Below are positions 6,324 to 23,862 of a DNA stretch of 56,792 nucleotides, piece by piece; the first letter of the stretch is position 1; the number at the start of each line of letters is the position of its first letter. Where the stretch lies: the IMG/VR virus record IMGVR_UViG_3300045146_000225, positions 64,001 through 120,792 of that record. One strand, 5' to 3'. Source of the DNA: a virus. Taxonomy: Duplodnaviria > Heunggongvirae > Uroviricota > Caudoviricetes. The notes under the pieces are model-generated. The model saw only the letters and a program-made list of their open reading frames with translations, searched no databases and had not been told where the DNA came from. A program made the position numbers and the translations under genes.

Positions 6324-6377
6324 TAAGATGCTATTGGTATGTTATTGTGAAATACTATAATAGCCAATAGCATCTTA
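6324..6377. terminator. Long hairpin after pepA, probable terminator
   Basis: Perfect 14-bp stem TAAGATGCTATTGG / CCAATAGCATCTTA with a 26-nt loop. Confidence 0.5.
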
Positions 6378-6463
6378 ATATTTCTCGGTGTATTAATTAT
6401 CTTTGTGTATCGCGCGTTCTTATATAAGAAATGGTGTAACCAGTTCAAAATAATTAAAAGCAC

Positions 6464-6940
6464 GTGACGCGTAAGAATAGCAAGAAGATACTAAATAACT
6501 CGTACACTAAGGGTGAAAACCTCAAGGGTGACGAATACGAGTTCGGTACAAAGTTGATTGTTGATGAGTCCCTTGTGTCGATGTACATGAAGGATACGTG
6601 TGGTATAAATGACATATTGTATTCGGATCTTGAATGTATTGTAGATGGTATAATGTGTTCTGACGATAGGGTCAAGACGATTGTTAATTCTGATGTTAAA
6701 GTGACGAGGATCGATATCAACTACGTGTTCGATGTCGTGTACGGTAAGTTCTCGACTGACATGAAGCTTGTTTCGAGTATAAATATATCGTACTTGTTCG
6801 ATATAATGGTTGGTTATCTTAGTATATCGCATGACTATATGTTCTCAATGTTGTCTTACCGCAATAAGGAAATAGTCGTATCATTGCTTATCAACGATGC
6901 TGATAATGATATAACTCGTAATGTTAAATTCATGGTTTAA
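6464..6940 (+). CDS. Hypothetical phage protein
   Basis: 158-aa ORF with backbone codon style. Confidence 0.6.
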   Translation: MTRKNSKKILNNSYTKGENLKGDEYEFGTKLIVDESLVSMYMKDTCGINDILYSDLECIVDGIMCSDDRVKTIVNSDVKVTRIDINYVFDVVYGKFSTDMKLVSSINISYLFDIMVGYLSISHDYMFSMLSYRNKEIVVSLLINDADNDITRNVKFMV

Positions 6941-8667: not shown

Positions 8668-9079
8668 AGTTGTCATGATTCCATCTGGATTCAGCAAAGG
8701 TAGGGAATCAATGGTGTTCTTCACATCCATACGCAGGATTATACGGGAGTACGAGGTGGAGTTCGGTATACATCCAGACACCATAATATGTAAAGGTAAC
8801 AGGTCTGATTTGATAGCTGGTACCATACGGAGTTTAATGAGTAATTACAACGTGTCGAACGCTGATGGTGATTATGATACTATAACATTGAAGTGTTCGA
8901 GTAAACCTACCATTAAGTGCATTGACAACGGTGGGGATATTCCGATGGGCAACTCGTTTGACGGTATGGTATGTAACGGTATACAACCACCAGATGTATC
9001 CAAGTATATGGACAGGTTTTCATATTTTATAGAACGAATGGTCAGTACCGATATGGAATTTGACGTGCTGGTGTTTTGA
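8654..9079 (+). CDS. Hypothetical protein
   Basis: Overlaps the upstream stop; operon packing. Confidence 0.6.
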   Translation: MEKNRVVMIPSGFSKGRESMVFFTSIRRIIREYEVEFGIHPDTIICKGNRSDLIAGTIRSLMSNYNVSNADGDYDTITLKCSSKPTIKCIDNGGDIPMGNSFDGMVCNGIQPPDVSKYMDRFSYFIERMVSTDMEFDVLVF

Positions 9080-9106
9080 TTAAATAAATAACAATAAACT
9101 TAACAT

Positions 9107-10381
9107 ATGCTTCGTGGGTATCCAGAAGGTATATACGTGTCGTTCAATCTCGATTTATTCAGCGATGTCCCCCGCAACAAGATAGCCAACATGGTGGCTG
9201 CTTCGACCAAGATGAACACTACCTACACGTCATCGTATAAGCCAAACGATGTTAAAGAAGGGTTCAGGGTATGCATGAACGAGGTCGGTGGTAGCAAGAT
9301 GTCGCAGTTACAATCGCAGTTCTTCAATTACGCCGAGGCTGTAAACGTTATGTTCAAGTTGTTCGATGTCATTTATTCTTGCGGGTACACAACGTCGAAG
9401 TGCGTTGCCGAGATGAGGGTTGTCTTCGATGGCGATATAACTAAACTAACAAAGTTGAAGGATATAAACACGATACGCCTCGTTAATGCAGTCGACGAGT
9501 GCTGTGTGAACAAGAGGTATTCTAGCGAGAAACACGTGTCCGAGTACGTCGGCAACTTGAAGTACATGCGCCGCAAGATGTCTGGTGTCGTGCCTAGTGG
9601 TGTTGGTTTCCACAACGAGTATTCTTTCCCAGCCAACAGGAAAACGCCGTTATACGTGCCTGATTTAGAGTCCAACGTGTTGACTATACGGTATAATAAG
9701 AACACTAACTACCAGAAGGAGAAACGAGGTGCGAGTGCTTTCCTGTCCGGTGTTATAAACGCCACCACATCAATACTCGGCTCCAACAACAAGTACAGCG
9801 TGGCTGAGATGTCAAAGGTAAACGATGTCGCGGTGGCTCAGAAACGGGTTGCCGACCTAGCGCATTCGTTCGATTTGTTCTCTGTTAAATTCCCCAACAT
9901 AGAGATATCGGTTGATTTGAAACAAGACGAGGCTGTTGTTAAATCAAGGTACAATGAATTCAGAGGCAAGTTGTTTGACCTCGTGTACTTCTGTGGTGTT
10001 GAGGATTGCCAGGTGAATTACGATTCTGAACGGGGTGCTTTACAGGTAAAGGAGGCTCATATCAAGAACGGGATGTTCATAAGCGACATGGAGATGTTCT
10101 ACTGCGACATAAGCGGTGATATCTCTGGGTGCGTATTGGTAGAATGTAACGTGAGTAAATCGAACATTAAGGATTGCGAGTTGATGTACGGGTGTGCTAT
10201 CAACGATTCCATAATAGAGAACACTTGGTTCCACGGCGTTGGTATTACCGTGTCAAACTCGTTCATCCGTAACCCTAATGATAAGCTCGTCGAAGCTGAA
10301 TTGAGGAACACCAAGGTTGCCGGTGTTGTTAATTATGGTTCCATCGTCGATGGTGGATGTGAGGTTTTCGCAGTCGTTTAA
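9107..10381 (+). CDS. Hypothetical protein with C-terminal beta-helix-like repeats
   Basis: 424 aa; C-terminus has short I/V-x-x-C/S periodicity (CDISGDISGCVLVECNVSKSNIKDCEL). Confidence 0.7.
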   Translation: MLRGYPEGIYVSFNLDLFSDVPRNKIANMVAASTKMNTTYTSSYKPNDVKEGFRVCMNEVGGSKMSQLQSQFFNYAEAVNVMFKLFDVIYSCGYTTSKCVAEMRVVFDGDITKLTKLKDINTIRLVNAVDECCVNKRYSSEKHVSEYVGNLKYMRRKMSGVVPSGVGFHNEYSFPANRKTPLYVPDLESNVLTIRYNKNTNYQKEKRGASAFLSGVINATTSILGSNNKYSVAEMSKVNDVAVAQKRVADLAHSFDLFSVKFPNIEISVDLKQDEAVVKSRYNEFRGKLFDLVYFCGVEDCQVNYDSERGALQVKEAHIKNGMFISDMEMFYCDISGDISGCVLVECNVSKSNIKDCELMYGCAINDSIIENTWFHGVGITVSNSFIRNPNDKLVEAELRNTKVAGVVNYGSIVDGGCEVFAVV

Positions 10382-10470
10382 AAAAAAATATTATTTTTGT
10401 TTTTGCGTTTAATTTTTTTTATACATTTGTACACGTAAAACTCATTTTTTAATTATAAAAAATAATACAG

Positions 10471-10731
10471 ATGCCCAAGTATAGGATGTATCTTGACCGT
10501 AAGGTCGTTTTATGGCAGCGTGATTACCTCAACATAGAGGCTGCTTCTAAGAAAGACGCTCAGAAAGAGATGGAGAAGTTCATAAAGTCTGGTTTGGTTA
10601 ACGACTCTCGGATATTTGATACCGATTTCTCCGATATAGAGAGTGTGGTTGAAGTCGGTGTTGATAACGAACCGACGGTGTTGTTGTATGATTCTGACGG
10701 TAATGAGCTTATTACCAACAGTGAAATGTGA
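10471..10731 (+). CDS. Hypothetical acidic phage protein
   Basis: 86-aa ORF downstream of a TACATTTG box at 10422. Confidence 0.65.
   Translation: MPKYRMYLDRKVVLWQRDYLNIEAASKKDAQKEMEKFIKSGLVNDSRIFDTDFSDIESVVEVGVDNEPTVLLYDSDGNELITNSEM
10479..10605 (+). repeat. Direct repeat copy 1 (127 bp)
   Basis: GTATAGGATGTATCTTGACCGTA...GGTTAACGAC, repeated at 11668-11795. Confidence 0.9.
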
Positions 10732-10988
10732 TGGATTGTTCATATTAACCGTCTTTTATATGTAAAGTAAATGATGAAAACAAAGCCATTAAGTATGTGA
10801 CTAAATTTAATACTATACTTGAAAAATGGAAGGAATATTACAGTCGGTTTGAAAAAAAATGACGAGCATGTTGAGAAACATTTCGGCCGGTGGTATAGTT
10901 TGAGCCGTGTGACAAGATGCTCCTACGATGTAGTTGATGTACGTTAAATTAAAAATATATTATTCATGGACATTTAATATTATTAAAA

Positions 10989-11600
10989 ATGGCATCAATT
11001 GATAAAACATATATAGACTCTTATAAAGATTATAAAGAGTTTAAAACTTGGGCAGACACCCAGGTGTTGACATTTTTCGATGGACATCAAAAATGTATAG
11101 GTGATTATGTTTGGCTATGCGAGGAAGAAGATTTTGAACATGGTGAGATTCCAATTATGAACACACCGACGTGGCTGGATATCTATCTGATTCAGAATTG
11201 CAAAAGTGAATTCGTCTTAGAACGAATGAAATGTATTTATGGTGATGAGCATTATGAAAAGTTTAAAACTGTTGATTTGACTTCTAAACCACCTGAAACG
11301 TTTAAACGAAAAAGGAAGATTTCTATCACTAAAAGCAAACCAACTAGCTTTGAATTTCATTCGAAACCTTACGGTGGTGGCGCGTGGTGGTTGCAATGTG
11401 ATGGCGATTTCTGGTATAACAGTGATACTAAGAAATGGGTACATCGTGATAGTTATTATCCACGTAATACGAATACTGCACACATAGCGAGCATTAAAGC
11501 ACTCATGAAACATCTAAGGAGACAATATTTACCAGCAGGTGTCGTGTTCACGCTCAAAGGGAGGTATATAGATGAAAATTATACCGTGAGTGTTTATTGA
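10989..11600 (+). CDS. Hypothetical protein
   Basis: 203-aa AT-rich ORF lying between the two repeat copies. Confidence 0.7.
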   Translation: MASIDKTYIDSYKDYKEFKTWADTQVLTFFDGHQKCIGDYVWLCEEEDFEHGEIPIMNTPTWLDIYLIQNCKSEFVLERMKCIYGDEHYEKFKTVDLTSKPPETFKRKRKISITKSKPTSFEFHSKPYGGGAWWLQCDGDFWYNSDTKKWVHRDSYYPRNTNTAHIASIKALMKHLRRQYLPAGVVFTLKGRYIDENYTVSVY

Positions 11601-11667
11601 TGTTGCTAATTTGTGATTGCGTATGGAAATGGCAACACCTGCTGAATATTAACATAAATGTACGCTG

Positions 11668-11795
11668 GTATAGGATGTATCTTGACCGTAGGGTCGTTTT
11701 TATGGTAGCGTGATTACTTCAACATAGAGGCTGCTTCTAAGAAAGACGATCAAAAAGAGATGGAGAAGTTCATAAAGTCTTGTTTGGTTAACGAC
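11668..11795 (+). repeat. Direct repeat copy 2 (128 bp, degenerate, frameshifted)
   Basis: Copy of 10479-10605 with a few substitutions and one extra T. Confidence 0.9.
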
Positions 11796-11799
11796 CAAC

Positions 11800-11949
11800 T
11801 GTGCTGGCTGCCAAGACACTCACCATCCCGGCGACATCATCCTCGTAGCAGGTAATGGACACGAGACATACCAGGAGGTGAACGGTGTGAAATCGCATTT
11901 CGATGACCGCGAGGTGGTGGTAGAACAATTTAATGGGAAAATTAAATAG
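11800..11949 (+). pseudogene. murE: C-terminal fragment of host MurE ligase
   Basis: 11821-11949 translates [42 protein letters not shown], matching the MurE tail GDxxLxAGKGHExYQ...HFDD; no upstream part. Confidence 0.8.
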
Positions 11950-11972
11950 TATAGAATAATTCTGAAAACATT

Positions 11973-12746
11973 ATGAATATCAATATACTAACTTGGAATA
12001 TCAACAAAAATGAATCTAAGTCTTTCTATGAGGAATTGCATAAACAACTTCTTATAGATGATATTCATATTGTTGTACTACAGGAGTGTTTTTATGATTT
12101 TTCTTCAAACGAGTTTGCCGAATTTGATGAAACAATCGATTATTTGTCTAAAAAAGGAAGGCGTTCGGTACGCATATTTATTAGAAAGTCAAGCGAATTA
12201 TCAACAAGTGATTTGACATATCATGCTGATGTTGACAACAAATTGGTTTGTATGAAAATTCATACTAAGAGTGGATGTATGTTCAACCTTGCAGGAATTC
12301 ACTTGTACAGTATATCTAATGTCACAAAAGAACAGCAAAACTATCTCAACAGCAAATTTCCTGAACTTATTTTCAGGTACGAGTCACGTATTAAAGAGAA
12401 AAAAACAATTATTGTTGGAGATTTTAACTACGGACCGTTTGATGATTTTTTTCAAAATCCAAAAATGTTTTTCACAAATAGTGATAGACGATTTGTTCGT
12501 CAATTTCCGGAGTTACAAAAGAAAGGAACCATGCGATTGTTTTATAACCCGATGTGGAATTTGGTTGATGGTGTAATTGGTAGTCCAGAGATCATGGATT
12601 GTATAGATGTAGGTTCAATTAAAATACTTGAATCATTAAACGGTAAACCATTAATCAAGCAGAGAATCAATAAATTATCAGAGTCATTTCTAGCAAATGG
12701 CTATTCAGACCATTTACCAGTTTCATTTACACTAAAATTAAATTAA
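11973..12746 (+). CDS. Endonuclease/exonuclease/phosphatase (EEP) family protein
   Basis: LTWNIN, VLQE, GIHL, IIVGDFN, SDHLPV motifs. Confidence 0.85.
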   Translation: MNINILTWNINKNESKSFYEELHKQLLIDDIHIVVLQECFYDFSSNEFAEFDETIDYLSKKGRRSVRIFIRKSSELSTSDLTYHADVDNKLVCMKIHTKSGCMFNLAGIHLYSISNVTKEQQNYLNSKFPELIFRYESRIKEKKTIIVGDFNYGPFDDFFQNPKMFFTNSDRRFVRQFPELQKKGTMRLFYNPMWNLVDGVIGSPEIMDCIDVGSIKILESLNGKPLIKQRINKLSESFLANGYSDHLPVSFTLKLN

Positions 12747-12752
12747 AAAAAT

Positions 12753-13175
12753 ATGGAAAAAGATGTTTGGTTATATGCTGATGGCACAGAAGATACAAGC
12801 AAAACCCCCTATGATTATTTGTTTGATTATTCCTCGAAGCTTGAAAAATTTACAAACGGAGACATTATAGGTGTTGTATCTGAATGGAGACCGGAACGGG
12901 AAAAAGAGGTAATCTATGGATTTACATTAGTTGCTCCAGCGTTAAATAACTACAGTTATAAATTGTTTGAAGTTGTTCAAAAAGATGCTTTTTCTCCATT
13001 TCCCGTAACGATGAGATTGTTTCGTGTAGATACTGAAGCGCCAGAGGAAAAGAATAATGTTTCAGAGCAAGATTTCGAGCAAGAACTAATAAAATTTATC
13101 CAGCATTCTTCAACACGAAGAGCATTAACTGCCTTGAAAACTCTTATTGGAAAAAAAAGACAATACGAGGTGTAG
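12753..13175 (+). CDS. Hypothetical protein, partner of the EEP gene
   Basis: Starts 6 nt after the EEP stop; 140 aa. Confidence 0.7.
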   Translation: MEKDVWLYADGTEDTSKTPYDYLFDYSSKLEKFTNGDIIGVVSEWRPEREKEVIYGFTLVAPALNNYSYKLFEVVQKDAFSPFPVTMRLFRVDTEAPEEKNNVSEQDFEQELIKFIQHSSTRRALTALKTLIGKKRQYEV

Positions 13176-13580
13176 GTGTATTTAAAAAAACAGGTTTTTA
13201 TTTCGTAATAAACTCAAAACTACTATGTTGTTCTACTTGTTCGAATTCTTAGAAAAACACCACGTTGCTTGACCTGCGTTGAAGCAATTGCATTAAAGTA
13301 TGTACATAGAAAAGCTTTAAGCTATTTGATAACTTTAGAGGAAAATGAAGCAAAAAGCGTAAAGGCAAAAATTAAAAGTGGAGATGTAATCTGTCTTGAT
13401 AACGTAATTGTTGCTACGAGTTCTGAATTTGATGAGCTTATCGCTGATTTAAAGAAATTTCAATTATCTGAACGCCATATCAACCGCAGTGTTGTATAAC
13501 GATTGTAGATATGAAACTGTTTCATCGTACAAACCTTAACACGTGATTGCATATATTTTTTATTGATAAAACGTAAAAAT

Positions 13581-13718
13581 ATGCCAAGAGAACGACTTCC
13601 ATTAAAAAGAGAAAACAAAGGTGTTGTGATTGTGAACATCGCTGACATTTTCAGGAATGAAGACATACAGAACGAAGTTATAAGTGCGTGTAAAAAACTA
13701 AAACCACGCAAAAAGTGA
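13581..13718 (+). CDS. Small hypothetical protein (45 aa)
   Basis: Read manually: MPRERLPLKRENKGVVIVNIADIFRNEDIQNEVISACKKLKPRKK; A-rich upstream. Confidence 0.3.
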   Translation: MPRERLPLKRENKGVVIVNIADIFRNEDIQNEVISACKKLKPRKK

Positions 13719-13938
13719 TGATATTTTTAAATACATAACTCTATGGTTAAATACGAACACGACGGTTAAACAGTTTCGTGGTTGTATAATATCATAAAAA
13801 AAATTATCATTGATATTATAAAATAATCGTATATTTGTGTGTTGTTTCTTTACACCTATGGTTTTAAAAATATCGTTTTTAAAATCACTAGAAACATGTA
13901 TTGGATACGCAGTTTTAGTTAGTATTAACATATTTAAT

Positions 13939-14370
13939 CTTAGATTCAAGTAGTAAATGCAACTTTGTGAAGGGTAATAAAAATCAAATATATCCATCAA
14001 AACAAAGATGGTAAGAAATTACCGCTTTGTCTTGATGGATATATTTGCTAAATTGCCCCCTAAGTCTCCCAAAACAAGTTGCGCTTTGGATCATATAACC
14101 GAACAACAAAGGTATCAAATTTCTTGTTTAGTACAAGCAGGGAAATCTCAGACTGAGATAGCTCAGCTAAAATGAGAATATGAATGGCTTGATTCGGTAG
14201 TATTTTCCCGAGAAACCATCTTTTGAAAATATCACTGATGAGGATATTAAGCGTGTTAAGGATAAACTTAATACACGACCGCGAAAAAAAACATAAATTT
14301 TCTTCGTACATTTAATTTTTAAATTATAAATTTGCACTTACTAAAGTTGCATTTGCAGCTTGAATCCGCC
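13939..14370 (+). mobile_element. IS30-family deletion derivative, long form (432 bp)
   Basis: Ends CTTAGATTCAAGTAGTAAATGCAAC ... GTTGCATTTGCAGCTTGAATCCGCC (imperfect IRs); 14086-14169 encodes the IS30 HTH start LDHITEQQRYQISCLVQAGKSQTEIAQL, joined to the NENMNGLIR C-terminal piece. Confidence 0.85.
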
Positions 14371-14426
14371 AAGGATTAACTATCGAACAAGCGAACAAAG
14401 CTATCGAGGTGCTTTTTTACGGTTGC

Positions 14427-14480
14427 ACCTAACGGTGGGGCTAAACCGTCGTTTTAATGCGGTTTTAGCCCGTGGTAGTA
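14427..14480 (-). other. attC-like site S1 (short, GTT altered to GGT)
   Basis: ACCTAAC-GGTG-GGGCTAAACC...GGTTTTAGCCC-GT-GGTAGTA; an upstream gene remnant (GLTIEQANKAIEVLFYGCT*) stops in the TAAC. Confidence 0.6.
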
Positions 14481-14512
14481 GCCGTTTTTTATTCATCTTT
14501 TAATTGATTTAT

Positions 14513-15136
14513 ATGATAGTATTGATAACACACGAAGAAAGCCAAACAGTAATGGAAGCGTTTTTAAATGCTGGACATGACGCATATAGTTGTGATTTAT
14601 TACCACCAAGCGGAAAGTACCCAGATAGACATTTACAAATAGATTGCTTTGAAGCAATAGAACTTATTAAGCCAGACTTTTTAGGGATGCACCCTGAATG
14701 CACGAGGTTAACAGTTGCAGCGAATAAGTATTATAAGCCTGAATATGCTGAACGCTTCCCAAATATACACGAACAAAGAGCCGAAGCAGTTGAACACTTT
14801 TTGAAATGTGCGGAAGCATTAGTGAAAGTTGGTAAAGGTTATATTGAAAACCCGATAGGGATAATGAGTAAACTCTATAAAAAGCCCACTCAAATAATAC
14901 AACCTTACCAATTTGGACATAAAGAACGCAAAAGCACTTGCTTATGGATTGAAGGATTATCAAAATTACAACCTACAAATATTGTAGAACCTGACATTAT
15001 AGTACATAAAAGCGGAAGAACTGACAGTAGATTGCACTATGAAACATTTAAGCTACCAAAAGAAGAACGAAGAAAAGCCCGTTCAAAAACCTTTACCGGA
15101 ATTGCCGAAGCGATGGCGTTGCAGTGGGGTTCTTAA
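14513..15136 (+). CDS. Cassette ORF: short phage-type DNA cytosine methyltransferase-like protein
   Basis: EESQTV..GHDAYSCDL, HPECT (PC-like), YIENPIG, IIQPYQFGH, TCLWIEGL, RSKTFTGIAEAMALQWG family pattern. Confidence 0.65.
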   Translation: MIVLITHEESQTVMEAFLNAGHDAYSCDLLPPSGKYPDRHLQIDCFEAIELIKPDFLGMHPECTRLTVAANKYYKPEYAERFPNIHEQRAEAVEHFLKCAEALVKVGKGYIENPIGIMSKLYKKPTQIIQPYQFGHKERKSTCLWIEGLSKLQPTNIVEPDIIVHKSGRTDSRLHYETFKLPKEERRKARSKTFTGIAEAMALQWGS

Positions 15137-15142
15137 AATGGC

Positions 15143-15273
15143 TACTAACGGTTGCAGGTATGGTTAGTGGCGGATTTGAAACCACAGACCTATCAAGCAG
15201 TACAAAAGTAAATGAATAGTAGAAATTTAATATTAACCACAGCACCCGCCATTAACTATACATATTGTTATGG
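15143..15273 (-). other. attC-like site S2
   Basis: AAC 15147-49, stem GTATGGTTAGTGGCGG / CCGCCATTAACTATAC, GTT 15267-69. Confidence 0.85.
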
Positions 15274-15297
15274 TTTCGTGCTTTAATTCAAATAATT

Positions 15298-15591
15298 ATG
15301 ACAATTCAATTTTATTTAAACAACGAAGAAGAAACTCACATATACTCTTTGTATGATATGAGTTCAAATCCATTTAAAATCGGTGATGTTATTAATTTAT
15401 CGGTTGATGATATTCCTCCAGTAAAATTAAAAGAATATAAGCCTGAATTTGCTAAAAAACTTGTCGAAGATAATAAGCAACAAAGAGCGATGTTTCATAA
15501 TAAAAAAATTAAAATTATTCATGAATGGAAATATATCGACATTGAAAGTGATATATTTACCATTGAATATCATTGCGATTTGGTTTCTTAG
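15298..15591 (+). CDS. Cassette ORF: hypothetical protein
   Basis: Single ORF filling the space between S2 and S3. Confidence 0.7.
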   Translation: MTIQFYLNNEEETHIYSLYDMSSNPFKIGDVINLSVDDIPPVKLKEYKPEFAKKLVEDNKQQRAMFHNKKIKIIHEWKYIDIESDIFTIEYHCDLVS

Positions 15592-15597
15592 TATGAA

Positions 15598-15727
15598 TCA
15601 TAACGGTCGGGTGTAGCACAAGTAAGGGATTGCGGAGTGCGAACCTATCAAACTACACAGACATAAAAGCGGACTACAATGCTTCAAAATTGTAGCAACC
15701 CCTTATTGGTGCTACACTTTGTTAGCC
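15598..15727 (-). other. attC-like site S3
   Basis: AAC 15602-04, stem GTGTAGCACAAGTAAGGG / CCCTTATTGGTGCTACAC, GTT 15721-23. Confidence 0.85.
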
Positions 15728-15768
15728 ACCGTATTTTATTGAATGTTATACTTTTAAATTATAAAAAT

Positions 15769-16077
15769 ATGTACACAAAAACTGAAAACAAATGGAGATA
15801 TTCGCAGGAATATCAAGAAGTAACTACCAGCAAAGATGGTATAATTGAAGGTTCAAAATCAATATGTGCAATTTCAACTTTTGACAAATCAAAAGAAGAA
15901 ATAGAATCAAATGGAAAACTTATTTCTGCTGCTCCTGAAATGTTTGAAGCATTAAAAAGAGTTGAAGCATATTTAGTAGCAAATGAAGATGTTTTAGCAC
16001 CATTTCCAACTCGAAGTGAGTTAGATAATATTCGTGCGGCAATGTTTAAAACGGGGCTGTACCAATATGGTGGCTAA
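15769..16077 (+). CDS. Cassette ORF: phage hypothetical protein with NxxLIxAAPE motif
   Basis: SNGKLISAAPEMFEAL; stop TAA lies inside the TAAC of S4. Confidence 0.7.
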   Translation: MYTKTENKWRYSQEYQEVTTSKDGIIEGSKSICAISTFDKSKEEIESNGKLISAAPEMFEALKRVEAYLVANEDVLAPFPTRSELDNIRAAMFKTGLYQYGG

Positions 16078-16156
16078 CTTACTTATATGCGTACCAAAGG
16101 TACGTATATACTACAGACGTTTGTTGTATATGCGTACCTTTTGTTGCCTAATATAG
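16072..16156 (-). other. attC-like site S4, interrupted by IS30 miniature element
   Basis: GGCTAAC then a 70-bp segment nearly identical to 19573-19642; the matching GTT appears at 16464 after the element. Confidence 0.55.
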
Positions 16157-16457
16157 CTTAGATTCAAGTAGTAAATGCAACTTTGGGAATGGTAATAAAA
16201 ATCAAATGTTTTTCAAAACAAAGGGGTAATTTCTTACCATTCATGGGAACGTGGAACAAATGAGAATATGAATGGCTTGATTCGGCAGTATTTTCCCAAG
16301 AAATCATCTTTTGGAAATATTACTGATGAGGATATTAAGCGTGTTAAGGATAAACTTAATACGCGACCGCGAAAAAAAACATAAATTTTCTTTGCATATT
16401 GAATTTTTAATTATAAATTTGGACTTGCTAAAGTTGCATTTGTAGCTTGAATCCGCC
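16157..16457 (+). mobile_element. IS30-derived miniature element (301 bp)
   Basis: Same ends as 13939-14370; interior encodes SYHSWERGTNENMNGLIRQYFPK (IS30 transposase C-terminus). Confidence 0.88.
16391..16421 (+). promoter_or_regulatory. Outward-facing Bacteroidota consensus promoter in the element's right end
   Basis: TTTG (16391-94) - 19 nt - TAAATTTG (16414-21); other copies read TTCG-N20-TAAATTTG (-7 boxes at 14327, 19899, 23813). Confidence 0.6.
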
Positions 16458-16485
16458 TTTGTTGTTAGCAAATCGTTTTAATGTT

Positions 16486-16616
16486 TGCTAACGGTTTGGC
16501 GGTATGAAACGGCAGGGATTAAGTGTGAAACTCTATCAGCCGAAACGAATGATGAATAGTAGCACAACGGTTAATTACGGCACATCAGCCCTGCTGTTTT
16601 ATACCGCTTGTTAGGG
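16486..16616 (-). other. attC-like site S5
   Basis: AAC 16490-92, 19-bp stem GCGGTATGAAACGGCAGGG / CCCTGCTGTTTTATACCGC, GTT 16610-12. Confidence 0.88.
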
Positions 16617-16637
16617 GCTGGTATTTATACAAATTTT

Positions 16638-16904
16638 ATGAATTTTTCTCAAGCATTAGAAAGCCTAAAATTAGGTAGTAAAGTTCAGCGTGGAGGCTGG
16701 AATGGTAAAGGAATGTATATTTTCCTTATCGGTACAGATTTGTCAAAAGTCGGCACAGGTGGATGGACTTACACAAATGGAGTAAACGATAATTATGAAT
16801 TACTTCCATTTATTGCAATGAAAACAGCCGATGAAAAAGTTGTTCCGTGGCTGGCTTCTCAAACAGATATTTTAGCAGAGGATTGGTGTATTCTTTTAGG
16901 CTAA
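16638..16904 (+). CDS. Cassette ORF: DUF2829 / Tad2-like protein (candidate nucleotide-signal sponge)
   Basis: FSQALESLKLGSKVQRGGWNGKGMYIFL ... PWLASQTDILAEDW, the DUF2829 signature. Confidence 0.8.
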   Translation: MNFSQALESLKLGSKVQRGGWNGKGMYIFLIGTDLSKVGTGGWTYTNGVNDNYELLPFIAMKTADEKVVPWLASQTDILAEDWCILLG

Positions 16905-16937
16905 ATTATCAAATGGGGTATGCCGTCTTATGCTTGT

Positions 16938-17068
16938 CCCTAACGAATGGCGGTATGGGCAGTTGGGGATTAGAAACCACTACACTATCCGCAAGTATAA
17001 ACTTAATAAAATGCAGAAATGATAAATGAACAGATAATACCCCAATTGCCTATGCCCGCTTGTTATGC
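16938..17068 (-). other. attC-like site S6
   Basis: AAC 16942-44, stem GCGGTATGGGCAGTTGGGG / CCCCAATTGCCTATGCCCGC, GTT 17062-64. Confidence 0.85.
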
Positions 17069-17825
17069 ACAGGTTATTTTAGGCGATTGCTTGGAGTTGT
17101 ATAAAAATATTGAACCTAAAAGCATAGACTTAATTTTAACCGATTTGCCTTATGGTACGACTGCGTGTAAATGGGACACTATAATTCCATTTGATAAACT
17201 TTGGGAAATGGTAAATTACTTACTAAAACCAAATGGAACATTTATTACAACAGCTTCACAACCTTTTACAAGTGCTTTAGTAATGAGTAACCCGAAAATG
17301 TTTAAGTATGAGTGGATTTGGGATAAAGTGCAACCTACTGGGGCATTTAATGCAAGCAAACAACCAATGAAGTTACATGAAAATATATTAGTGTTTTATA
17401 ATAACCAGCCTATTTATAATAGGCAAATGACAGATAGACCGCTAAAGGATTTAAGACCAAACCAAATAAAAACTACAAAAGAATTGGATAGGGTTGAATA
17501 TGAATATTTAGGAGGACAAAAGAAACAGTATTCATCAAATTGGGATTACACAAAAGTAAATCCGAAAACAATTATTCAGTTTCAAAAATCTGCCGAAAGA
17601 TTTAAAGAATTTAAACACCCCACCCAAAAACCAGTAGCATTATTTGAGTACCTACTTAAAACATACAGTAATGAAGGAATGACAATATTTGACCCTTGTA
17701 TGGGTTCTGGAACAACTGGAGTAGCATGTAAAAATCTAAACCGAAACTTCATCGGAATAGAAAAAGACGAGAACTATTTCAAAATAGCAGAGCAGCGAAT
17801 AAATGCACGGACGCTGTTTTCTTAA
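17019..17825 (+). CDS. Cassette ORF: beta-class N4C/N6A DNA methyltransferase
   Basis: GDCLE, LILTDLPYG (motif IV), HPTQKPVAL, FDPCMGSGTTG (motif I); start codon lies inside S6. Confidence 0.9.
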   Translation: MINEQIIPQLPMPACYAQVILGDCLELYKNIEPKSIDLILTDLPYGTTACKWDTIIPFDKLWEMVNYLLKPNGTFITTASQPFTSALVMSNPKMFKYEWIWDKVQPTGAFNASKQPMKLHENILVFYNNQPIYNRQMTDRPLKDLRPNQIKTTKELDRVEYEYLGGQKKQYSSNWDYTKVNPKTIIQFQKSAERFKEFKHPTQKPVALFEYLLKTYSNEGMTIFDPCMGSGTTGVACKNLNRNFIGIEKDENYFKIAEQRINARTLFS

Positions 17826-17830
17826 CTTGT

Positions 17831-17924
17831 GCATAACGGGCGAGTGTAGCCATCAGTAGGCTAACGCACCGACCTGTTAATTTAGTAATAACTTTCCGCC
17901 TATTGTGGCTACACTTTGTTAGCA
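17831..17924 (-). other. attC-like site S7 (short class)
   Basis: AAC 17835-37, stem AGTGTAGCCATCAGTAGGC / GCCTATTGTGGCTACACT, GTT 17918-20. Confidence 0.85.
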
Positions 17925-17948
17925 ACTTGGCGGGTAAAATAGAACGAA

Positions 17949-18161
17949 ATGACAATAGAAAACATTAAAAAAGAGATGCTAAAATACCGTGATTTTTACG
18001 GTGGCAATTTGCTTGAAGTAGGCGAAATCGAAAATGCAACTACAAAAGAAGAGCTTGAAAAAATTATTGAAAACCATAGAAGCCACATGGAAGCAATGTT
18101 AAGTGACGCTAATGGGCATCTCGATAATTTGAAAAGGAAATGCAAGTTAGGGTACTGTTAG
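17949..18161 (+). CDS. Cassette ORF: hypothetical protein
   Basis: 70-aa ORF between S7 and S8. Confidence 0.7.
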   Translation: MTIENIKKEMLKYRDFYGGNLLEVGEIENATTKEELEKIIENHRSHMEAMLSDANGHLDNLKRKCKLGYC

Positions 18162-18170
18162 TAGCCTTGT

Positions 18171-18265
18171 TGCTAACGTTCGAGGCTATGAGTAGTGCAG
18201 CCTTTCAAACCGTATCAATTTAGCACTACATTAAGTGGCTGCATTACTTATAGCCTTTGTTAGCC
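18171..18265 (-). other. attC-like site S8 (short class)
   Basis: AAC 18175-77, 20-bp stem AGGCTATGAGTAGTGCAGCC / GGCTGCATTACTTATAGCCT, GTT 18259-61. Confidence 0.88.
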
Positions 18266-18301
18266 ACATGTTTTTATTAATCATTTTAAAATTAAATAGA
18301 T

Positions 18302-18646
18302 ATGAGTACAATTTCAATTAATGGTAATACTTATTCAGGCAATAGTATTGTAGTGATAAATGGAAAAGTTATTGTAAATGGCAATGATGTTACACCTGAT
18401 AGTAAGGAAATAAACATTAAAGTTGATGGGAATATTAACAAATTAGAAGTTGATGCTTGTAATAAAGTAGAAATTACTGGAGATGTTTCAAGTATTAAAA
18501 CACAAAGCGGAGATGTTGAAATTACGGGAAATGTTACTGGTTCAATTCAAACAATGTCAGGCGATGTTGATTGTGGAACAGTCGAGGGTTCAATTTCAAC
18601 AATGAGTGGTGATATTAAGCACAAGCGTTCTCAAACTTGTGGCTAA
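18302..18646 (+). CDS. Cassette ORF: small beta-solenoid-like protein (T-x-S-G-D repeats)
   Basis: TQSGDV, TMSGDV, TMSGDI repeats; stop TAA inside the TAAC of S9. Confidence 0.7.
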   Translation: MSTISINGNTYSGNSIVVINGKVIVNGNDVTPDSKEINIKVDGNINKLEVDACNKVEITGDVSSIKTQSGDVEITGNVTGSIQTMSGDVDCGTVEGSISTMSGDIKHKRSQTCG

Positions 18647-18770
18647 CGTTACGTATATGGTAAGTTGGGGGATAGAATGCACAAACCTATCAACTTGCAA
18701 GAACTAAATAAATTGTGCTAATATAACAAGTTGGAACGACACCCCCAATTTGCTATATACATTGTTAGGG
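18641..18770 (-). other. attC-like site S9
   Basis: AAC 18645-47, stem GTATATGGTAAGTTGGGG / CCCCAATTTGCTATATAC, GTT 18764-66. Confidence 0.85.
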
Positions 18771-18789
18771 TGCGTTTATTTTTATCAAA

Positions 18790-19095
18790 ATGGAAAATTA
18801 CACACGAGTAAGAGTAGAATTAGATGTTATGGCTCAAAAATTAATTAGTCAATACATGATTAATAATGAACGAATTGAAAAAGATATTGAAGCTGGGATA
18901 AACCGAGCTTTTGAAACAATTGACTTAGAAAAAGAAGTTGAACGCTCCGTTAAAAATGCTATTGAAAAAGCAATAAAAGATTCCTCGGAATGGGGTAAAA
19001 TTCGAGATGCTGTAAAAAAGAAAACCGATGAAATTGTCGAAAGTTATATTGAAAAATCAATTTCTAAATTTAGACAGGATTTTCAAACGGAGTAA
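18790..19095 (+). CDS. Cassette ORF: hypothetical helical protein
   Basis: 101-aa ORF between S9 and S10. Confidence 0.7.
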   Translation: MENYTRVRVELDVMAQKLISQYMINNERIEKDIEAGINRAFETIDLEKEVERSVKNAIEKAIKDSSEWGKIRDAVKKKTDEIVESYIEKSISKFRQDFQTE

Positions 19096-19109
19096 AGTGT
19101 TTAAATGCA

Positions 19110-19240
19110 CCCTAACGGTGTCGCAGCTATGCAATGTGCGGGTGTACGAAGTGCTTTCGTATCCCACGTTACAGAACTTAGCTACGAGCTGAAAAGATTG
19201 CGTTTGCAGCACCCCGCATAGTGTATAGGTGCTGTTATAA
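19110..19240 (-). other. attC-like site S10
   Basis: AAC 19114-16, stem GCAGCTATGCAATGTGCGGG / CCCGCATAGTGTATAGGTGC, GTT 19234-36. Confidence 0.8.
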
Positions 19241-19272
19241 ACAGGCTTTTATTAACTTTCTAAATATAAATT

Positions 19273-19560
19273 ATGAAAAAAGAAAAACACACAGAAGGAA
19301 ATTGGAAATATAGACCAGATATAGTAGGCAATAGTTTTTATATTGAAACGGTTGACCAATCTCACGATAGAACATTTATTGGGGAAATAGGTGGAGGACT
19401 TCAATCTAAAATAGAAATTGAAGCTAATGCAAAACTTGTATCTACCGCACCCGAACTTTTAGAAGCATGTCAACGAGCTTTAGAAGTTTTTGAATCTGAA
19501 AATATAACAGGACAAGCAAGATTGTTGCTGGCAGTCGCTATCAAAAAGGCGGTTTTTTAG
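19273..19560 (+). CDS. Cassette ORF: phage hypothetical protein with NxxLxxxAPE motif
   Basis: HTEGNW...EANAKLVSTAPELLEAC; same family pattern as 15769..16077. Confidence 0.7.
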   Translation: MKKEKHTEGNWKYRPDIVGNSFYIETVDQSHDRTFIGEIGGGLQSKIEIEANAKLVSTAPELLEACQRALEVFESENITGQARLLLAVAIKKAVF

Positions 19561-19565
19561 CTTGT

Positions 19566-19642
19566 TTATAACTTACGTATATGCGTACCAAAGGTACGTA
19601 TATACTACAGACGTTTGTTGTATATGCGTACCTTTTGTTGCC
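19566..19642 (-). other. attC-like site S11, truncated by IS30 miniature element
   Basis: TTATAAC then the 70-bp segment shared with S4. Confidence 0.55.
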
Positions 19643-19942
19643 CTTAGATACAAGCAGTAAATGCAACTTTGGGAAGGGTAATAAAAATCAAATGTTTTCA
19701 AAACAAAGGGGTAATTTCTTACCCTTCATGGGAACGTGGAACAAATGAGAATATGAATGGCTTGATTCGGCAGTATTTTCCCGAGAAACCATCTTTTGAA
19801 AATATCACTGATGAGGATATTAAGCGTGTTAAGGATAAACTTAATACGCGACCGCGAAAAAAACATAAATTTTCTTCGCACATTGAATTTTTAAATTATA
19901 AATTTGCACTTGCTAAAGTTGCATTTGCAGCTTGAGTCCGCC
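19643..19942 (+). mobile_element. IS30-derived miniature element (300 bp)
   Basis: Near-identical to 16157-16457; tracked ORF 19669..19935 is its transposase remnant. Confidence 0.88.
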
Positions 19943-20064
19943 TTGGCTAATCTTGTAACCACTTTGCGCGAAGAAGATAAACTTTGCATCATTAACACAG
20001 GCGATGAAGAACACCGAGAACCACAAATTATTTGTTCAATGGGATTAACTAATGTTCAATAAGT

Positions 20065-23000
20065 ATGGCTAAGTTAAATATAGAAAATACACGAAAAGCA
20101 TTACAGTCATTCGACTTTAAAACCTTGTTTATTGAGGAATTGGGATGGAGTAACCCTTCTTCTTCGAAAGTAATTAATGAAACGATAAAGGATATTGTTA
20201 TAATTCGTAAACCCATTGCCGAATTGAGCGGTGCTGTGGTTTTTGAGATTACAACACCAACTGGTATTGTTCCCGAACCAAAAGAACGGGCAGCGATTGC
20301 AAAAGAAATACAAAAACAGCATTTTGAACATGTTTTGATTTTTGTTGACAGCGACCGTAAACAAAGCATTTGGTACTGGCTGAAACATCAGGACAAAAAA
20401 CTGTTGAGTAGGGAGCATTTTTATTTCCGACACCAACCAGGCGATGTGTTTATTGCCAAAATAGCCTCTTTGGTTGTTGACATAAGTGAATTCGACCGTG
20501 AAGGGAATATTGCTATTGCCGAAGTAGCAAGCCGTATAAAATCGGCTTTGGATATCGAACGGGTGGTTAAAAAATTCTTCCGCGAATACCAACAGGAATA
20601 TATTGTTTTTCTCGACCTTATCGAAGGCATTGACAATGAAGCCGACCGCCGCTGGTATGCATCGGTTATCCTTAACAGGCTCATGTTTATATATTTTCTA
20701 CAAAAGAAATTGTTTGTTGACAATGCTAACGCTAACTACCTTAACAGCAAACTTGAATTCTCGAAAAAAGAACTGGGTAAAAACAAATTTTACGAGGTTT
20801 TCTTAAGTAAATTGTTTTTCGAAGGTTTTGCCAAAAACGAAAGCCAGCGAAGCCCCGAAACCAATAAGCTGATAGGTAAGATTAAATACCTTAATGGTGG
20901 CTTGTTCATGAAACATAAAATTGAGATAAAGTACGATGGTAAAATAAAAATTGCTGACGAAGCATTTGTAACCATATTCGATTTATTCGACCGTTACAGC
21001 TGGACATTGAACGATACGCCCGGTGGTGCCGACAACGAAATGAACCCCGATGTACTTGGTTATATTTTTGAAAAATACATTAACCAAAAAGCATTTGGGG
21101 CATATTATACACGAACAGAGATTACCGAATACCTCTGCGAACAAACGGTTTATAAACTTATTCTTGATGCTATAAATGAACCCGAAATCGACCCTGAATT
21201 ATTTAAAAAAACAGGCTTGGATAAATTTGGAAACCCCAAACGTTACGATTCTATAGCTGAACTTTTACTGAACCTCGATGCTGCCAATTGCAAAAAGTTG
21301 GTTATGGGCGATGATGCTATTTTGCCAAACCTTAGTTTGCTCGACCCTGCCTGTGGTTCGGGTGCATTTTTGGTGGCAGCTATGAAAACGCTTATTAACG
21401 TATATGCTGTCGTGCTGGGCAAAATTGATTTTCTGGGCGATAAAAAGCTAACCGAATGGAAACAACAAATTGAAACCGACCACCCGAGCATTAACTATTA
21501 CATTAAAAAACAAATTATTACCAACAACCTGTATGGGGTTGACCTGATGGAGGAAGCTACCGAAATAGCCAAACTACGCCTGTTCCTTGCATTAGTGGCA
21601 AGTGCCGACACGGTTGACCAGTTGGAACCCCTGCCCAATATTGTTTTTAATATAATGAATGGCAACTCGCTTATAGGATTGATGCGGGTTGATGCCGGAA
21701 GATTTGAAAAACATCAGGGACAAAACCTCTTCCGTAAAAGTTATGCCGACTTGTTACGTGAAAAAAACATTGCTATTCAGTTGTACAAAAACCCGAAAGG
21801 TATTGACGATATACAACTGTTGAAAAACAATATTGAACGCCACCGCGAGGAAGTCATACCCATTCTCGACGATATGCTCATGAACGAGTTTGGAAACCTT
21901 GGTATTAAATATGAACAGATAACCTGGGACGAGAATAAAAACAAGGAAGGCAAGCCCGTTAAACGCAGCCTGAACATTAACGACATAAAAGCTCTTGAAC
22001 CTTTCCATTGGGGTTACGAGTTTTCTGAAATTTTCAGGAAAAAGGACGGGTTTGATGCTATTATTACAAATCCACCTTGGGAGGTGTTTAAACCAAACTC
22101 AAAAGAGTTTTTTCTTGCCTACTCAAATATTGTTTCGAGAAAAAGAATGAGCATTAAAGATTTTGAGCAGGAACAGGAAAAAATTTTACAAGACCAGGAA
22201 ATAAAAGAAGCATGGATAAATTATTTAAGCAGCTATCCCCATGTGAGTTCATATTTCAGAAGTGCAAAGCAATTCGAAAATCAAATATCAATAGTTAATG
22301 GTAAAAAAGCTGGTTCGGATATAAACCTTTACAAACTTTTCACAGAGCAATGTTTTAATTTGTTAAGGAAAGGTGGTTATAGTGGAATTGTTATACCAAG
22401 TGGAATTTATACTGATTTAGGTACAAAGCAATTACGAAAATTATTATTTGAACAAAATAAAGTAACAGGCTTGTTCTGTTTTGAAAACCGTAAAGAAATT
22501 TTTGAGGGTGTTCACCGTAGCTTTAAATTTGTTGTTTTAAGTTTTGAGAAAGGAGGGAACACTAAATCATTCCCTGCTGCTTTTATGCGCCACGATGTGG
22601 ATGAATTAACTAGCTTTCCAAAATATGGAGCTTCGGAGATAAGTCTTAATTTTATCACAAAACAAAGTCCTGAAAGTCTTTCAGTTACAGAAGTGAAAAA
22701 TGATATTGATTTTAGTATTTTACAAAAAACCATATCATTCCCCTTTGTAAGTGACAAAATATATGGCACATGGAACATTGAGTTGGGTAATGAATTTCAC
22801 ATGACAAACGATAGTAAAATATTTTTAACAAAACCAGATAAGAACGCATTCGCATTATATGAGGGTAAAATGATATGGCAATTTTATCATAGATATAGCG
22901 AACCAAGATATTGGATTAATGAAAATACGGGAAGGAAGTCAATTTTAGGTAAGCAAAAAGATGATGGTCAGATTTTAAATTATCAAAATTATAGACTTGC

Positions 23001-23544
23001 ATTTAGGGATATAACTTCACCAACAAATGAGCGGTCGATGATTAATACAATTGTTCCCAAAAATATCTTTGCCGGTAATACTCTTGTTTTATCAAAAAAC
23101 AATATTTCATCAGCAGATTTGTTATGTATTACTTCATTTTTAAATGGATATACAAATGATTATTTAATTCGTCAAAAAATTACTTCACACTGTAATTTAT
23201 TTTATGTCTATCAACTTCCCGTACCTCGCCTCAAACCCACCGACAAATGGTTCAAGCCTATTATTGAACGTGCAGCCAAACTTATTTGCACCACCGAAGA
23301 ATATGCCGATTTATGGGAAGAAACCATGCAAACCAAATGGAGCGAAAAAGTTGCAGCAACCAATGAATATGAACGTAACAAACTACGGGCAGAACTTGAT
23401 GGCATTATTGCCCATATTTACGGGCTTACCGAAGAAGAATTTACTTACATTTTAAGTACATTTCCTATTGTACCACAACCACAGAAAGTGGCAGTACAGA
23501 ATGCTTATAGGGATGTGATAAATGGGTTTATTAAACCTGAATAA
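20065..23544 (+). CDS. Large N6-adenine DNA methyltransferase (Eco57I/type IIG-like or DISARM DrmMI-like)
   Basis: GAYYT, LDPACGSGAFL (motif I), NLYGVD, IITNPPW (motif IV), C-terminal TRD-like region; no nuclease motif recognised. Confidence 0.85.
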   Translation: MAKLNIENTRKALQSFDFKTLFIEELGWSNPSSSKVINETIKDIVIIRKPIAELSGAVVFEITTPTGIVPEPKERAAIAKEIQKQHFEHVLIFVDSDRKQSIWYWLKHQDKKLLSREHFYFRHQPGDVFIAKIASLVVDISEFDREGNIAIAEVASRIKSALDIERVVKKFFREYQQEYIVFLDLIEGIDNEADRRWYASVILNRLMFIYFLQKKLFVDNANANYLNSKLEFSKKELGKNKFYEVFLSKLFFEGFAKNESQRSPETNKLIGKIKYLNGGLFMKHKIEIKYDGKIKIADEAFVTIFDLFDRYSWTLNDTPGGADNEMNPDVLGYIFEKYINQKAFGAYYTRTEITEYLCEQTVYKLILDAINEPEIDPELFKKTGLDKFGNPKRYDSIAELLLNLDAANCKKLVMGDDAILPNLSLLDPACGSGAFLVAAMKTLINVYAVVLGKIDFLGDKKLTEWKQQIETDHPSINYYIKKQIITNNLYGVDLMEEATEIAKLRLFLALVASADTVDQLEPLPNIVFNIMNGNSLIGLMRVDAGRFEKHQGQNLFRKSYADLLREKNIAIQLYKNPKGIDDIQLLKNNIERHREEVIPILDDMLMNEFGNLGIKYEQITWDENKNKEGKPVKRSLNINDIKALEPFHWGYEFSEIFRKKDGFDAIITNPPWEVFKPNSKEFFLAYSNIVSRKRMSIKDFEQEQEKILQDQEIKEAWINYLSSYPHVSSYFRSAKQFENQISIVNGKKAGSDINLYKLFTEQCFNLLRKGGYSGIVIPSGIYTDLGTKQLRKLLFEQNKVTGLFCFENRKEIFEGVHRSFKFVVLSFEKGGNTKSFPAAFMRHDVDELTSFPKYGASEISLNFITKQSPESLSVTEVKNDIDFSILQKTISFPFVSDKIYGTWNIELGNEFHMTNDSKIFLTKPDKNAFALYEGKMIWQFYHRYSEPRYWINENTGRKSILGKQKDDGQILNYQNYRLAFRDITSPTNERSMINTIVPKNIFAGNTLVLSKNNISSADLLCITSFLNGYTNDYLIRQKITSHCNLFYVYQLPVPRLKPTDKWFKPIIERAAKLICTTEEYADLWEETMQTKWSEKVAATNEYERNKLRAELDGIIAHIYGLTEEEFTYILSTFPIVPQPQKVAVQNAYRDVINGFIKPE

Positions 23545-23555
23545 TGGAAAGATTG

Positions 23556-23856
23556 CTTAGATTCAAGTAGTAAATGCAACTTTGGGAATGGTAATAAAAA
23601 TCAAATATTTTTCAAAACAAAGGGGTAATTTCTTACCCTTCATGGGAACGTGGAACAAATGAGAATATGAATGGCTTGATTCGGCAGTATTTTCCCGAGA
23701 AATCATCTTTTGAAAATATTACTGATGAGGATATTAAGCGTGTTCAGGATAAACTTAATACGCGACCACGAAAAAAACATAAATTTTCTTCGTACATTGA
23801 ATTTTTAAATTATAAATTTGCACTTACTAAAGTTGCATTTGCAGCTTGAATCCGCC
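23556..23856 (+). mobile_element. IS30-derived miniature element (301 bp)
   Basis: Near-identical to the other copies; ends 6 nt before the leuS ATG. Confidence 0.88.
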
Positions 23857-23862
23857 AGATAA

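Follow-up and report, generated by a model that had tools for sequence, protein, structure and literature searches.

A Tad2-family gene in a phage cassette array

Can a phage carry a gene against host defence signalling as a single-gene cassette, and could such a cassette move by site-specific recombination? This question is raised by a small gene in the window analysed here, a stretch of 56,792 nucleotides that forms the second half of a 120,792-bp IMG/VR virus record (IMGVR_UViG_3300045146_000225, positions 64,001 to 120,792; CheckV completeness 45%). The gene encodes an 88-amino-acid protein of the Tad2 family and lies within an array of attC-like sites. We consider it likely that the protein is a Tad2 sponge for an ADP-ribose signal made by TIR proteins, and that its gene occupies an attC-like single-gene cassette of a large phage. 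The features that matter most for this reading are the following, in window coordinates.

16638-16904, + strand: Tad2-family gene, 88 amino acids, predicted sponge for TIR-derived ADP-ribose signals
16486-16616, + strand (folding, or bottom, strand): attC-like site D, 131 nt, upstream of the Tad2 gene, with boxes TGCTAAC ... GTTAGGG
16938-17068, + strand: attC-like site E, 131 nt, downstream of the Tad2 gene, with boxes CCCTAAC ... GTTATGC
16492-16943, + strand: putative Tad2 cassette of 452 bp, made up of site D and the gene, with crossovers placed between AA and C of both AAC boxes in the bottom-strand reading
14427-19643: cassette array in which 11 sites (A, B, C, J', D, E, F, G, H, I, J) are separated by single small genes of one orientation (+ strand)

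Under the proposed mechanism, the protein would assemble into a homotetramer whose pockets, at the interface between its two dimers, would bind and sequester an alarm molecule derived from ADP-ribose and made by TIR proteins. That molecule would most likely be the type I Thoeris signal 1''-3' gcADPR (3'cADPR). With it sequestered, the host effector would stay off and the phage would replicate. The gene itself would have been gained, and could be lost or moved, through site-specific recombination by a host or phage recombinase encoded outside the contig.

Sequence, fold and predicted assembly of the protein

The open reading frame (ORF) is intact, with an ATG at 16638 and a stop codon at 16902-16904 on the + strand. 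An upstream TTG start at 16608 was rejected because it falls inside a recombination-site box and is backed neither by the profile nor by the relatives, which start with ATG. The protein matched Pfam PF11195 ("Tad2-like", or "Thoeris anti-defense 2-like", formerly DUF2829) with E = 6.2e-27 and 94.4 bits against a cut-off of 25 bits, spanning profile positions 1-72 of 73; the same match scored 93.2 bits in a profile search of the whole contig. Among the sequences of solved structures (phmmer against PDB), Tad2 proteins were its sole matches (E 2e-17 to 3e-15), namely ModTad2 (8V3E, 9EIB), SPO1 Tad2 gp34.65 (8SME, 8WJE), HgmTad2/AcrIIA7 (8KBI) and SptTad2 (8WJD).

An AlphaFold2 model built on an alignment of 77 relatives had a mean pLDDT of 93.9 and a pTM of 0.83. 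Its elements (H3-11, E16-18, E27-31, E58-62, E68-70, H75-79, E83-85) follow the order published for Tad2, that is, an N-terminal helix, an antiparallel sheet and short loop helices. Searching PDB with this model in Foldseek returned Tad2 chains for all of the first 24 matches (E 1e-7 to 2e-6, TM 0.7-0.8, 37-46% identity), while the 25th match had E = 0.9. An earlier note on this stretch, written from the sequence alone, had claimed a DUF2829/Tad2 signature and named profile and Foldseek searches as the check. Both searches bear the claim out, and the fold, the pocket residues described below and the predicted tetramer all agree with it.

The protein is thus confirmed as a member of the well-known Tad2 family and is ordinary in that respect. 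At E below 1e-5, more than 7,000 proteins belong to the family, and Tad2 relatives are carried by 324 isolated phages and more than 560 IMG/VR loci. An anti-CRISPR reading of DUF2829 (AcrIIA7) was set aside, as this earlier label was not reproduced by Li et al.

Co-folding of four copies gave an ipSAE of 0.92, compared with 0.11 for the best control. The three runs had at least 97% of their contacts in common, and partner pLDDT was at least 91. Of the proteins used for calibration, 20 of the 30 solved as pairs reached the mark, compared with 1 of the 23 solved as single chains. The predicted interfaces are formed by helix 1, the 37-50 loop and residues 66-79. These models suggest that the protein is most likely a Tad2-type homotetramer (dimer of dimers); since solved Tad2 tetramers exist, the pass may mirror likeness to them and does not amount to independent proof.

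The ligand pocket and the predicted signal

In SPO1 Tad2, 1''-3' gcADPR or its waters are held by W25, N26, I63, T65, D67, H71, W73, S76, T78 and D79 (Yirmiya et al.). The HMMER-aligned equivalents in the 88-amino-acid protein are W21, N22, M61, T63, D65, V69, W71, S74, T76 and D77, so that eight of the ten residues are identical. The earlier note had named missing pocket residues, together with a lack of binding and rescue, as what would refute its proposal; most of the pocket residues are present. Across the 77 sequences of the subfamily alignment, each of the ten positions is either invariant or conserved at 90% or more. In its local motifs, KTAD and SQTD, the protein equals SPO1 Tad2, whereas ModTad2 has KTVD and SVSD. 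The protein lacks the long stretch inserted between beta2 and beta5 that makes up the cyclic-dinucleotide pocket (with R31, S47, F70 and N85 in HgmTad2): it has 88 amino acids against 104, and HMMER breaks the HgmTad2 match into two stretches around the insertion.

Comparison with individual Tad2 proteins shows how the new protein is placed among them. SPO1 Tad2 (gp34.65; PDB 8SME/8SMF/8SMG, 8WJE) is similar in length (89 and 88 amino acids), has the same fold with 44-46% identity in structural alignment, also lacks a long insertion, and has the same kind of interfaces as the predicted tetramer. The two differ at I63/H71 of SPO1, which are M and V here, and in the beta2-beta3 loop, where F44 of SPO1 aligns to G41 and the present subfamily conserves WTYTNGxNDN. 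They also differ in setting, SPO1 being a Bacillus phage and the present phage probably growing on Bacteroidota, with its gene between attC-like sites. ModTad2 (MoTad2, from a Myroides odoratus prophage; PDB 8V3E, 9EIB) has about 40% identity and shares an origin in Bacteroidota phages, but its ligands are His-ADPR and cUMP, and type I Thoeris is not blocked by it. HgmTad2 (AcrIIA7) and SptTad2 (104 and 101 amino acids; PDB 8KBI-8KBM, 8WJC, 8WJD) share the gcADPR pocket (W21/N22 and S..TD), but bind cGG and cGAMP through the insertion that the 88-amino-acid protein lacks.

Judging from these residues, the ligand is most likely 1''-3' gcADPR, although we make this call softly because Tad2 specificities vary and the pocket residues are mostly common to ModTad2. 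Known Tad2 ligands differ among proteins and include 3'cADPR, His-ADPR, N7-cADPR, cUMP/cCMP and cGG. Also counting against a gcADPR assignment are the two changes relative to SPO1, I63 to M (conservative) and H71 to V (at a water-coordinating position), and the absence of the subfamily motifs from all 84 homologues that Hadary et al. tested.

The protein might instead be a Tad2 sponge for His-ADPR (type II Thoeris), for N7-cADPR (type IV) or for a cyclic nucleotide bound at a second, intra-dimer pocket. The His-ADPR binder ModTad2 matches it as well as SPO1 Tad2 does (E 1.9e-17 and 2.6e-17), and single Tad2 proteins can span three Thoeris types or bind cUMP/cGG at a second site. A second functional surface is further hinted at by the loop at residues 43-52 (W43, T46, G48, D51, N52), which is near-invariant in the subfamily and lies within the predicted dimer interface; on the model, W43...D51-N52 could be a second functional site. 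We nevertheless regard a different signal as unlikely, given the KTAD and SQTD motifs of the gcADPR binder SPO1 Tad2 and the lack of the insertion that builds the cyclic-dinucleotide pocket.

The gene lies alone between two attC-like sites

The region at 14.4-19.6 kb has low G+C, and eleven imperfect palindromes alternate there with single small genes. Eight of the 11 sites, 94-131 nt long, open with a box whose last letters are TAAC and close with GTTA followed by three further bases. Their fold has two helices, an outer one of 6 bp and an inner one of 16 bp. We built a covariance model, R1, from these eight long sites. In an alignment of 12 matches, 92.4% of cells were paired, compared with 73.3% in shuffles and 35-49% when partners were slid, and compensatory changes were present at 13 of 22 pairs.

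Sites D and E resemble attC, an imperfect palindrome with outer boxes RYYYAAC and GTTRRRY. The DNA fold of site D is more stable on the + strand (-24.1 kcal/mol) than on the - strand (-16.9), and the site scores 92.9 bits with R1; site E scores 113.3 bits on the + strand and 24 bits on the - strand. The Tad2 gene alone lies between them, making this a single-gene cassette.

The boxes also carry a junction signature. At 6 of 10 junctions, the GTT-side box matches the reverse complement of the next site's AAC-side box at 8 of the 9 positions beyond GTT. The junction of the Tad2 cassette matches at 6 of 9, and the GTTAGGG of site D pairs with the CCCTAAC of site E. Overall, boxes of successive sites pair at 5-8 of the 9 positions beyond GTT, and boxes of the same site at 1-7. 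This pairing with the next site is the footprint expected of units integrated as circles by site-specific recombination.

R1 found three more sites outside its training set at two other loci of the contig (35196-35325, 35642-35773 and 52698-52827), so that the phage contig has at least 14 sites, spread over three loci. Two of the additional sites bracket a 91-amino-acid ORF beside another IS30 miniature element. The third is solitary and lies in the replication module, between a 448-amino-acid Q-rich ORF and small genes near thymidylate synthase.

Other details of the sites were recorded as well. Two short sites of 78 nt (16072-16149 and 19566-19643) are 99% identical to each other and differ in kind from the long ones, having a perfect 16-bp stem. 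Each closes a cassette carrying a phrog_1273 paralogue and is followed immediately by an IS30 miniature element, for which these short sites may be a preferred target. A conserved CTATCA motif occurs about 25-30 nt into the variable loop in sites B, C, D, E and H and in sites of another locus (L094); together with G-T pairs at fixed stem positions, it is a possible protein-recognition feature of this attC family.

The carrier is a large phage, with no integrase in the contig

The earlier note implied the context of a bacterial integron, which does not hold for this locus. The contig encodes a family-B DNA polymerase (PolB), a DnaB-like helicase, SbcC- and Mre11-like proteins, a gp23-type major capsid protein and a prohead protease. 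PolB, DnaB, the gp23-type capsid protein and the protease identify the carrier as a large phage rather than a bacterial integron. Its capsid protein is closest to those of the Lak megaphages of Prevotella (31-34% identity), and the host of this lake-water phage is probably a member of the Bacteroidota. In a phage genome, an anti-defence gene is expected cargo.

Profile searches with TIGR02249 and PF00589 returned zero matches and thus no tyrosine recombinase in the 120.8-kb contig. As seen, the phage array is a cluster of attC sites lacking an integrase (CALIN). Qi et al. 2023 (PMC9892861) described such clusters in phages, one of them a phage of Polaribacter. Those CALINs resemble the present array in being integrase-less attC arrays, found in virulent and temperate phages, with methyltransferase cargo; they differ in that neither a signal sponge nor a polarity contrast between phage and bacterium was reported for them.

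The stretch is present in three lake-water metagenome runs, one of which may be the source sample; their contigs tile 9000-24500 with 0-3 differences, and depth is even over the backbone, the array, the large methylase gene and leuS (about 45x, 193x and 10x in the three runs). A chimeric assembly was rejected on the basis of this even depth and of the further sites at two other contig loci. Apparent cassette excision at contig joints with short sides (22-34 letters) was likewise dismissed, as these joints look like repeat or k-mer artefacts at miniature elements.

The same site family in Bacteroidota and other viruses

We scanned a species-genome collection and IMG/VR with a degenerate site pattern, from whose matches the loci searched with R1 were drawn (L095-L194 viral, L212-L311 bacterial). 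The pattern matched more than 120 stretches in the species genomes, a lower bound that, by a rough estimate, chance alone could about reach, and more than 117 (again a lower bound) in IMG/VR. Among the genome matches listed, nearly all were from Bacteroidota or allied phyla, including Psychroserpens, Winogradskyella, Polaribacter, Tenacibaculum, Draconibacterium and many Bacteroidales, with some Marinimicrobia and Chlorobiota.

R1 gave 217 matches at E below 1e-3 in the 100 bacterial loci, often 5-10 per 8 kb and on a single strand, and 215 matches in the 100 viral loci. In three whole genomes that we searched (G001, G004 and G005), the arrays extend to more than 100 kb and end 3-5 kb from a tyrosine recombinase gene. 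These array-adjacent recombinases have 376-382 amino acids. Among curated models they match NF040815 ("site-specific tyrosine recombinase/integron integrase") best, scoring 198-223 bits against a cut-off of 220. On this sequence evidence, the R1 site system appears integron-like. The attC-like flanks D and E, the circle-junction signature and the presence of the same sites in bacterial arrays beside IntI-like recombinases together support the claim of the earlier note that the gene is carried as a cassette.

Gene polarity and the unit that would move

Phage and bacterial arrays differ sharply in the direction of their genes relative to the sites. Using arrays hand-picked from the match lists, we found that the longest ORF between sites opposes the R1 strand in 34 of 35 cassettes of seven bacterial arrays, in which the cassette genes are co-directional with the adjacent recombinase gene. 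In the window, every cassette gene is on the R1 strand, as is the gene in 48 of 49 cassettes of 16 other viral arrays. Since the bacterial genes would lie on the conventional top strand, the R1 strand would be the bottom, folding strand, and the phage cassettes would then carry their genes inverted relative to the site. A conventional cassette, by comparison, has its gene on the top strand upstream of its attC, an arrangement that the window cassettes do not show. Within this one site family, the opposition between phage and bacterial cassettes is near-perfect, and the flip of a captured piece of a host array cannot be the origin of the phage polarity.

The strand bias is also visible in the sites themselves. 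The R1 strand gives the better DNA fold in 10 of 11 window sites and contains 31 G-T pairs, several of them at fixed positions, where the other strand has 12. Taken together, the polarity of the bacterial arrays and this wobble bias indicate that the Tad2 gene would travel with site D, which lies upstream of it, rather than with site E, and the moving unit is most likely site D plus the Tad2 gene. A conventional top-strand reading would instead place the Tad2 cassette at 16611-17062. A unit of site plus gene also fits the next cassette, where the start codon of a methyltransferase gene lies inside site E.

The hairpins could, on another account, be sense-strand RNA or DNA elements of the phage (terminators, mRNA stabilisers or PeSL-like joints), with the gene moving by homologous recombination. 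The position of the viral sites on the coding strand would suit this account, as would their better fold on that strand with conserved G-U/G-T pairs, as an RNA element would have, and the lack of a recombinase in the contig. We find it improbable, because the pairing of the right box with the left box of the next site points to circle integration and not to homologous exchange, and because the same sites form the long Bacteroidota arrays beside IntI-like recombinases, where they are on the non-coding strand. In addition, IntI1 recombined phage attC sites in experiments, those of the Polaribacter phage included (Qi et al. 2023, PMC9892861), and a scan of the present sites for intrinsic terminators and sigma-70 promoters found nothing above chance. 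The PeSL cassettes of T4-type phages, defined by a short early promoter and a stem-loop, do not match sites of 78-131 nt with conserved AAC/GTT boxes.

For an origin by site-specific recombination, the cassette packaging of the gene and the occurrence of its site family beside Xer/IntI-like recombinases in Bacteroidota make this the most likely route by which it was gained. Several observations pull the other way. No integrase, attI or Pc was found in the 120.8-kb contig, whose share of the genome CheckV puts at about 45%. With TIGR02249, the bacterial recombinases next to the arrays score 188-192 bits, below its cut-off of 265, in matches split at the IntI-specific region. The nine nearest Tad2 relatives (83-75% identity) and the 80 IMG/VR Tad2 relatives are in tightly packed operons of phages or prophages and have no R1 site nearby, by a model that would miss other attC families. 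Movement of this particular cassette is suggested by the anatomy of its sites. The 48 cassette proteins from the 16 other viral arrays included no second Tad2, and recruitment of a Tad2 gene into a cassette is so far a single case.

Miniature elements and expression

An IS30-derived miniature element is present in four copies, at 13939-14369, 16157-16457, 19643-19942 and 23556-23856; it has terminal inverted repeats and retains part of the transposase C-terminus. The exact inverted repeat of the element had 0 matches in the species-genome collection. The second copy is next to the Tad2 cassette.

16157-16457, + strand: IS30-derived miniature element, copy 2, 300 bp, directly upstream of site D, with repeat families D1/D2 and terminal inverted repeats

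The right end of this copy contains a match to the Bacteroidota promoter pattern TTTG-N19-TAnnTTTG (16391-16421), directed towards the Tad2 cassette. The window has 4 such matches against 2.05 expected, a weak excess, and the putative promoter is only a lead. The island genes run in the same direction as the flanking phage genes, which makes read-through transcription the simpler route by which the Tad2 gene could be expressed. That the gene is a silent passenger, an unexpressed cassette of no benefit, is very improbable: no integron promoter is in view, the sole upstream promoter-like match is not above chance and distal integron cassettes are often silent, but the ORF is intact with all family-invariant residues kept, the shared gene direction permits read-through, and the consistent placement of viral cassette genes on the strand of the site speaks for selection on their expression in phages.

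Cargo of phage and host arrays

Six of the nine window cassettes match phage protein families (PHROG), and three of the nine carry counter-defence candidates, namely Tad2 and two DNA methyltransferases.

14504-15136, + strand: DNA methyltransferase cassette (phrog_757)
17052-17825, + strand: N6/N4 DNA methyltransferase, the next cassette after Tad2 (PF01555, E 3.6e-33; phrog_67, E 8.8e-73)

In the 16 other viral arrays, most cassette proteins are of unknown function; the rest include methyltransferases (MT-A70 and others), PAPS reductase and DUF4326. The earlier note had pictured counter-defence carried in a cassette as the mirror image of the anti-phage defences known from integron cassettes. 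The first half of this idea is supported in that the Tad2 gene lies in an attC-like cassette, but it has a precedent, since N6_N4 DNA methyltransferase cassettes occur in phage CALINs and a counter-defence role was suggested for them (Qi et al. 2023, PMC9892861).

The mirror image gains some support from an R1 array of Draconibacterium. A 13-kb piece of it (L346, G005:C2:2740000-2753000) contains two TIR-domain cassettes, whose ORFs at 5141-6205 and 6367-6780 match PF13676 (E 1e-17 and 2e-13) and, weakly, ThsB models. The same piece has cassettes matching PDC-S04 (Bro-N/Fic, E 3e-163), PDC-S31 (DUF2971, E 1e-45) and DUF4238. By their sequence matches, these cassettes are candidates for defence cargo; a ThsA-type effector was not seen beside the TIR genes in the 13-kb piece. 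One site family would thus link TIR candidates in a host with a sponge for TIR signals in a phage.

Defence cassettes of chromosomal and mobile integrons (Darracq et al. 2025; Kieffer et al. 2025) resemble the Tad2 cassette as single-gene attC cassettes exchanged in the arms race between phages and bacteria. They are, however, defensive cassettes of bacteria whose genes lie on the top strand, whereas the Tad2 cassette is phage-borne and counter-defensive with its gene on the bottom strand. Neither Tad2 nor cassette-borne anti-defence is mentioned by Darracq et al. 2025. Tad2 in phages, attC clusters in phages and defence cassettes are already known. A signal sponge as an attC cassette and the polarity split between phage and host appear to be new relative to the literature searched, in which no paper with both "DUF2829" and "integron" was found.

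These observations suggest that phages trade counter-defence genes as cassettes, and a sponge in a cassette would provide a concrete mechanism for gaining and swapping such genes singly. We tentatively go one step further, to a possibility that we rate below the reading of the locus itself. Bacteroidota phages may run their own branch of the cassette system, using the attC family of their hosts with genes on the bottom strand and having counter-defence genes shuttled by host IntI-like recombinases, while the hosts stock TIR and other defence cassettes. If this is true, Bacteroidota phages and their hosts trade in one recombination currency, with strand polarity dividing two pools, and Tad2 sponges and orphan methyltransferases are the phage cargo shuttled between phage genomes. 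The attC family model is a search handle for hundreds of phage and Bacteroidota cassettes, with which new anti-defence genes can be sought in phage arrays and new defences in host arrays.

Other features of the contig

Beyond the array, several genes and repeats of the window stand out. A full-length leucyl-tRNA synthetase gene (leuS, 926 amino acids, 23863-26643) has 50.6% G+C compared with about 42% in the phage and starts a few bases past copy 4 of the miniature element. It is bracketed by two Eco57I-domain genes: one at 20065-23544 encodes a 1159-amino-acid protein with an Eco57I/MmeI-type methylase (type IIG-like), and the other is a 504-amino-acid ORF at 26724-28238. Both are genes of restriction-modification type in a phage. 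A backbone ORF at 36935-38119 (394 amino acids) has a Cas12f1-like TNB domain and a zinc ribbon and is TnpB/Cas12f-like. At the left margin of the low-G+C island, a 98-nt direct repeat occurs at 10508-10605 and 11698-11795 with 95% identity. Further upstream, an M17 leucyl aminopeptidase is encoded at 4879-6315 (PF00883, E 1e-103) amid phage replication genes.

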